Below, piece by piece: positions 50,577 to 50,812 of a DNA stretch of 64,000 nucleotides (its first letter is position 1; each line of letters begins with the position of its first letter). Source of the stretch: Escherichia coli (GTDB lineage Bacteria > Pseudomonadota > Gammaproteobacteria > Enterobacterales > Enterobacteriaceae); the NCBI RefSeq assembly GCF_045037415.1, contig NZ_CP173438.1, one strand, 5' to 3'. Under the pieces are notes generated by a model. The model saw only the letters and a program-made list of their open reading frames with translations, was not told the origin of the DNA and ran no database searches. The position numbers and the translations under genes are program-made.

Positions 50577-50812
50577 GAACTCTCCTGGATTCCCGGTGTG
50601 CAAACCGGGGGCGTATTATGTGCGAGTTCGGACCAAAAGGGAATTGACCTGCGGCAATAAATAGCAAACGTTTTCTTATTGCGCTTTTTTTATGCTTTTT
50701 TTGGCTTTTCTTCCTCAGATAAATCATTTCGACTCGCGGACGCCCTCTGTCAGACTGACCGAATTGTTATCAATGTTAACAAAACAAGAACAATTGGTTA
50801 TAAGGAGAGAGT

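Follow-up and report, generated by a model that had tools for sequence, protein, structure and literature searches.

Whether the fimbrial operon that stands between pyrD and ssuE in Escherichia coli K-12 has been lost from the chromosome analysed here, or was never present at this site, is the question raised by the window, by which we mean the whole 64,000-bp stretch of DNA under analysis. The operon, elfADCG-ycbUVF, encodes laminin-binding fimbriae of E. coli and is cryptic in K-12. In the window, pyrD (minus strand, 49566-50576; quinone-dependent dihydroorotate dehydrogenase, 336 aa) and ssuE (plus strand, 50813-51388; NADPH-dependent FMN reductase, 191 aa) are divergent and adjacent, both assigned from their translations and from the annotation of an ST131 chromosome; the pyrD ATG is read from 50576 and appears on the plus strand as CAT at 50574-50576. 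An earlier reading made from the sequence alone (the sequence-only reading) had claimed that only 236 bp separate the two starts, and the translations bear this out, placing the spacer between the start codons at 50577-50812, exactly 236 bp. ssuE is the first gene of the aliphatic sulfonate operon ssuEADCB, the rest of which (ssuA, ssuD, ssuC and ssuB) follows intact on the plus strand (51381-55049; ST131 annotation and ORFs).

The sequence is of the ST131 type and belongs to E. coli phylogroup B2: positions 49500-51400 of the window are 100% identical to E. coli O25b:H4-ST131 (NZ_CP103710.1), and the whole window, compared in a fixed register with bases 2926105-2990104 of that chromosome, is collinear with it and differs at 5 of 64,000 bases. 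The annotated order there is zapC, pyrD, ssuE, ssuA, ssuD, ssuC, ssuB, pepN, and the pyrD-ssuE gap carries no annotation. K-12 strain ER2796 (NZ_CP009644) has the order pyrD-ycbF-ycbV-ycbU-elfG-elfC-elfD-elfA-ssuE, in agreement with the sequence-only reading, which placed the K-12 elf operon between ssuE and pyrD.

With the seven K-12 Elf/Ycb proteins as queries, tblastn against the 64-kb window returned no match below E = 0.1 (best E = 0.12), and no homologue of the ELF/Ycb usher (ElfC), chaperones (ElfD and YcbF) or pilins (ElfA, ElfG, YcbU and YcbV) lies between pyrD and ssuE. The spacer ORFs of at least 20 aa are all short and overlap the known genes and the pyrD leader, and none is as long as any of the seven Elf/Ycb proteins (at least 171 aa). 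A blastn-short comparison of the central 101 bp of the spacer with the 7.1-kb K-12 insert gave no matches other than the bases common to both at the junctions and 8-9-mers of the kind that arise by chance. Together with the ST131 annotation, these results uphold the earlier claim that the spacer holds no fimbrial ORF, pseudogene fragment or insertion sequence. Signs of a deletion scar or an excised island at the junction (island-end remnants, direct repeats, an insertion sequence, an integrase or a tRNA gene) were also looked for and none was found. The lack of the ELF locus is a direct observation for the window; beyond the window it is backed by proxy, from the genome counts given below.

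The points at which the two arrangements part were read directly from blastn alignments between the window and a K-12 locus (L001). Homology breaks at window position 50675, equivalent to L001 11177, and is regained at window position 50745, equivalent to L001 18265; between these points the window has 69 bp (50676-50744, plus strand), a segment found only in genomes with the empty site and forming the distal half of the ssuE upstream region, and K-12 has 7,087 bp carrying seven chaperone-usher genes. An alignment with K-12, proposed in the sequence-only reading, thus confirms that elf is absent but does not give a clean indel, since 69 bp on one side are set against 7,087 bp on the other. K-12 and O157 share both flanks of the site with the window: pyrD, its leader and its PurR box to the left, and to the right the 68 ssuE-proximal bp followed by ssuEADCB. 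The part from 50745 to 51400 is 95.9% identical to L001 18265-18920. The left junction (50675/50676) marks where elf-positive E. coli and Pseudocitrobacter have the elf/ycb operon attached; it lies at the distal edge of the PurR box upstream of pyrD, among the final two bases. Every elf-positive genome sampled (W, B, K-12, O157:H7 and O111 among them) has its left break at the identical base, and for the right break two nearly identical positions occur; because the sampled elf-positive E. coli have the same two junctions, the comparison suggests that the occupied allele originated only once in E. coli. A model of the right junction as a 5-bp target duplication (TTTTC) with a 62-bp deletion was dropped, as nothing beyond the short match spoke for it.

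Sequence identity to K-12 is uneven around the site. On the pyrD/zapC/rlmKL side the window is 97.3-98.1% identical to K-12, and on the ssuE-ssuA-ssuD side (50745-53658 against L001 18265-21177) it is 94.9% identical. The 1.9-kb region varies among elf-negative genomes as well, down to 97.0-97.6% (e.g. Nissle 1917), and the lower ssu identity could reflect either fast evolution or recombination.

The sequence-only reading had also held that the ssu and pyrD control regions stand back to back, and the annotation of the spacer agrees. On the minus strand the pyrD leader occupies 50571-50644 (Rfam RF02373, PyrD_leader), scoring 97.9 bits over the full model, positions 1-74 (gathering score 47; E = 1.9e-17); its start-site-dependent hairpin at 50590-50611 was also picked up by a terminator scan. 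The PyrD leader is described as a CTP/GTP-sensitive start-site-switch element that controls pyrD translation (PMC6524683). Further upstream of pyrD, a predicted PurR operator lies at 50662-50677 (minus strand; AAGAAAACGTTTGCTA in the pyrD sense). It was located by alignment with the K-12 pyrD PurR motif CGGAAAACGTTTGCGT, ChIP-mapped at MG1655 1,003,889-904 (Cho 2011, PMC3159470), a site that corresponds to L001 11164-11179 and aligns with the window at 50662-50677. The predicted box matches 12 of the 14 specified positions of the 16-bp palindrome ACGNAAACGTTTGCNT, and its GCAAACGTTT core is kept in 42 species in the alignment described below. Both alleles keep an intact pyrD control region. 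The K-12 operon is co-directional with pyrD, and 10 nt separate its ycbF stop codon from the pyrD PurR box.

The remaining 137 bp of the spacer belong to the ssuE side and form a conserved ssuE upstream region. Its conservation was observed in an alignment of 42 spacers, those of the window and of 41 other enterobacterial loci. Two conserved blocks stand out in the distal half: block A (TTTTATGCTTTTTTTGG, 50688-50704, plus strand), a putative regulator-binding element of the ssu promoter recognised by column conservation, and block B (CAGATAAATCATTTC, 50716-50730, plus strand), with the palindromic core TAAAT-N-ATTT and column conservation of about 90% or higher, likewise a putative ssu regulator element. 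Position weight matrices for both were built without the window. The block A matrix scores 22.0 of 25.5 bits on the window; the block B matrix scores 23.6 of 26.4 bits on the window and 15.6 bits on the Pseudocitrobacter locus (p = 0.017). Neither reaches significance between elfA and ssuE in K-12 (p = 0.44 for A, 0.45 for B). K-12 thus differs from the window not only in carrying the fimbrial genes but also in being without the two blocks, A and B, that are conserved upstream of ssu. Closer to the gene, the 68 bp at 50745-50812 (plus strand), shared with K-12 by blastn and well conserved across the 42 sequences, include a Shine-Dalgarno sequence (AAGGAG) and probably the core promoter and 5' UTR; two ssuE-proximal blocks in the 42-sequence alignment, TGTTATCAATGTTA and GGTTATAAGGAG, are conserved. 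A sigma-70 scan of the spacer found no consensus promoter, which would fit an activator-dependent ssu promoter. The K-12 ssu promoter reportedly has a Cbl site upstream of its -35 element, together with CysB and IHF sites; a text search of the literature for a K-12 ssu promoter map naming Cbl, CysB and IHF returned nothing with coordinates. We infer that blocks A and B are ssu regulator sites, possibly of the Cbl/CysB/IHF type.

Which of the two arrangements is the older was judged from outgroups, located with SsuE as the query in one genome per species, which gave at least 80 loci. Among the 80 listed, at least 50 loci outside E. coli have zapC-pyrD head to head with ssuE-ssuA across a spacer of 225-295 bp; the genera with this empty site among the matches listed are Citrobacter, Enterobacter, Leclercia, Lelliottia, Klebsiella, Raoultella, Kosakonia, Kluyvera, Buttiauxella, Cedecea, Pluralibacter, Erwinia, Pantoea, Mixta and Serratia. 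PyrD is 79-95% identical in the outgroups by tblastn, and 99% in one of these 50 loci (L018), which is labelled E. coli. That locus has the same 236-bp spacer, also empty, and its identity to the window, no more than 89-92%, assigns it to a cryptic Escherichia clade. The 80 loci listed do not include E. albertii, E. fergusonii or Salmonella, and the genus-level outgroup consists of L018 and the literature.

The outgroup spacers are not merely of similar length. The window spacer aligns with them from end to end, including the 69 bp that K-12 is missing, and this segment aligns with the spacers of 41 other enterobacterial loci at a mean identity of 0.57 to the window. Citrobacter, Enterobacter, Klebsiella, Leclercia, Kosakonia and others thus have the same divergent pair, 225-295 bp apart, and keep the elements of the spacer (PyrD leader, PurR core, blocks A and B, ssuE-proximal blocks), so that they differ from the window by ordinary sequence divergence only. 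Because the outgroup loci are empty and their spacers are homologous along the full length, the empty pyrD-ssuE site is, by the evidence of these alignments, the ancestral state, and elf would have been inserted in other E. coli lineages. This changes how one suggestion of the sequence-only reading is to be taken, namely that the spacer be inspected for remnants of the island ends: none was seen, and with an ancestrally empty site and no deletion there would be none to find.

The site has not stayed empty in all of the outgroups. In three Erwiniaceae (Erwinia/Pantoea; L052 6732-10000, L056 5274-10000 and L060 5789-10000) the pyrD-ssuE spacer holds 3.3-4.7 kb. The L052 and L056 inserts encode family-2 glycosyltransferases, and L052 also a Polysacc_synt (flippase-like) protein, by Pfam; the L060 insert was assigned only through one ORF that resembles an L056 ORF without a Pfam match. 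Judging by these inserts, the pyrD-ssuE site has gained cell-surface genes more than once.

Within E. coli the two states were counted directly in 5,426 complete genomes. pyrD and ssuE are adjacent in 1,354 of them, and a 161-bp junction query that includes the 69 bp is covered to at least 80%, at 99-100% identity, in 1,352; the window belongs with these, having the divergent adjacent genes and carrying the 69-bp segment. elf DNA is present in 4,073 genomes, in 3,998 of which at least 80% of its length is found. Since the genomes with the junction and those with elf DNA add up to 5,425 of 5,426, the empty and occupied states look mutually exclusive and essentially exhaustive. A low-stringency search found full-length elfC in 4,003 genomes, and the remaining genomes without elfC have only paralogous ushers (fimD, sfmD and one unnamed) at 60-80% identity. 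Partial, IS-associated elf copies number 75, with IS-mediated partial deletions in, for example, matches H43 and H70, and no scar-type deletion allele at pyrD-ssuE was found among the 5,426 genomes. In one genome with the empty site, NZ_CP124467.1, ssuE itself is split by an IS4-like ISVsa5 into two annotated oxidoreductase fragments.

We consider it highly probable that the window retains the unoccupied, ancestral pyrD-ssuE region and that elf is a later insertion in other lineages, probably made by homologous replacement. In the ancestral state the control regions of pyrD and ssuEADCB would share one 236-bp spacer, as across the Enterobacteriaceae, Erwiniaceae and Serratia, with a pyrD part made up of PurR box, promoter, start-site-switch leader and Shine-Dalgarno sequence. 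This empty form is carried by ST131 and by about a quarter of complete E. coli genomes; the literature assigns it to phylogroup B2 and its relatives. The ELF/Ycb operon of K-12, O157 and others would have joined later, and once, at the distal end of the PurR box; it would have arrived by homologous replacement from a donor that already carried elf, bringing a divergent distal ssu region along.

The alternative that survives best is a secondary loss, in which the ancestor had elf and the F/G/B2 lineage lost it by recombination with the empty-site allele of a related Escherichia, so that the exact spacer was restored. A precise loss of this kind would leave the same sequence as the one found here, and González-Alba 2019 (BMC Genomics 20:936, PMC6896753) infers a loss of ycb in the F/G/B2 lineage from presence and absence on a tree; moreover, ST69 (phylogroup D) is without ycb and ST38 (also D) has it, so that there is no single clean split and recombination at the locus is plausible. 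This course of events nevertheless needs a gain and then a precise loss where one gain suffices, at least 50 outgroup loci with the close gene pair are all empty, the cryptic Escherichia clade included, and the 5,426 genomes contain no scar-type deletion allele and just the 75 partial, IS-associated elf copies; we regard it as improbable. A recent illegitimate 7-kb deletion in this strain or clone, fusing the two promoters, would account for the absence of elf, and IS-mediated partial elf deletions do occur in other strains, but it is refuted by the 69 bp, which come from neither end of the K-12 insert and are homologous to the spacers of other genera, and by the recurrence of the same junction at 99-100% identity in 1,352 genomes, which leaves it hardly any credibility. 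An assembly artefact, in which the fimbrial operon was collapsed or dropped, has just as little, being refuted by the mere 5 mismatches to a finished ST131 chromosome and by a junction that recurs in more than 1,300 complete genomes.

A clue to the route of the operon comes from Pseudocitrobacter faecalis, where a seven-gene elf-like chaperone-usher operon, with proteins 55-74% identical to K-12 Elf/Ycb, occupies the same pyrD-ssuE site (L015 2677-10000; also a second locus, L019). The intergenic site and the left junction are the same as those defined in the window, which is without the operon: the L015 sequence breaks after the same GCAAACGTTTTC as K-12, and its ycbF stop codon also lies 10 nt further on. 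Because the left junction and the 10-nt spacing of the ycbF stop are identical, the comparison suggests that the E. coli and Pseudocitrobacter operons go back to one insertion event that was spread by lateral transfer. The Pseudocitrobacter locus keeps block B. It also has a degenerate second copy resembling the PurR box (GAGAACGTTTTTTAT) near the right end of the insert.

The K-12 sequence beside both junctions is unusually divergent. On the left, K-12 resembles Pseudocitrobacter and not B2 in the 12 bp that adjoin the PurR core towards pyrD. On the right, the 69 bp at the K-12 junction match the window segment at 31 of 69 positions in register (shuffle mean 20.5, p = 0.002), the best of 219 registers, although the next best has 27 matches and the similarity is modest. 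Because of this divergence at both junctions, the data suggest that the intergenic region of E. coli was homologously replaced by that of an elf-carrying donor, and it is by this comparison that we infer the route of acquisition. Base composition contributes little: elf, with a GC content of 0.46-0.50, does not stand out as foreign, and the profile along the K-12 elf operon (0.39-0.50) is mildly lower than that of ssu (0.53-0.58), which is not decisive for a horizontal origin. A more specific version, in which the whole intergenic region was replaced from a distant donor and the distal 69 bp of the K-12 ssu region are xenologous (about 45% identical, with blocks A and B lost), is tentative, and we would not count on it. 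If it were true, ssu regulation in B2 ExPEC and in most Enterobacteriaceae would not follow the K-12 map of Cbl, CysB and IHF sites, and the two E. coli alleles could differ in how sulfate starvation induces sulfonate use. Read-through from elf into pyrD may also occur in elf-positive strains.

The absence of elf at pyrD-ssuE is real, but it is an already published strain difference. According to Wurpel 2013 (PLoS One 8:e52835), Ycb occurs in phylogroups A, B1, D and E and not in B2, and the fimbrial profile of E. fergusonii resembles that of B2; in González-Alba 2019, ycb is scored as lost in the F/G/B2 lineage. The Ycb-negative B2 genotype of these two papers and the window, an ST131 (B2) sequence, represent the identical fact. 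The treatment differs, in that the accessible parts of both papers deal with presence and absence of genes, and the present analysis compares the site with outgroups and resolves the junctions to the base. An ancestrally empty site agrees with Wurpel 2013 and differs from the wording of "loss" in González-Alba 2019.

As a discovery the finding is of low significance, since the absence of Ycb/ELF from B2, including ST131, was known and about 25% of complete E. coli genomes share the junction. What is added is, first, the polarity, by which ELF would be a gain in other lineages where one published reconstruction reads a loss in B2; second, base-exact junctions bordering the pyrD PurR box, which are usable as a simple PCR or in silico marker; and third, a caution that K-12, the strain used to map Cbl control, has a distal ssu promoter different from that of B2 and of other enterobacteria.

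A related operon deserves mention here. According to Wurpel 2013, Auf is closely related to Ycb, mutually exclusive with it and linked to B2. We found a seven-gene chaperone-usher operon (Auf) beside glgP in a genome without elfC, and Auf in 789 of the 5,426 genomes. That Auf takes the place of Ycb in every elf-negative strain was considered and rejected, since only those 789 genomes have it and many elf-negative ones do not; the Auf operon of B2 ExPEC also differs in its location, adjoining glgP and lying outside the window.

Several other differences from K-12 were noted in the window. At 13348-14858, appA and cspH are directly adjacent, with a 13-bp overlap in the ST131 annotation; in K-12 about 9 kb lie between cspH and appA, comprising etk-etp-gfcEDCBA (the group 4 capsule cluster) and IS1D, which makes this site a second K-12 surface-structure locus that is absent from the window. 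Between agp (1-111) and cbpA (646-1566), a 102-bp fragment of yccE at 392-493 is annotated as an incomplete pseudogene, where K-12 has a 1.26-kb yccE between cbpA and agp. Finally, torS (8346-11089), the sensor kinase for TMAO reductase, is frameshifted according to the ST131 record, and as none of the window's mismatches to that record falls in torS, the window shares the frameshift; torCAD, torR and torT look intact.
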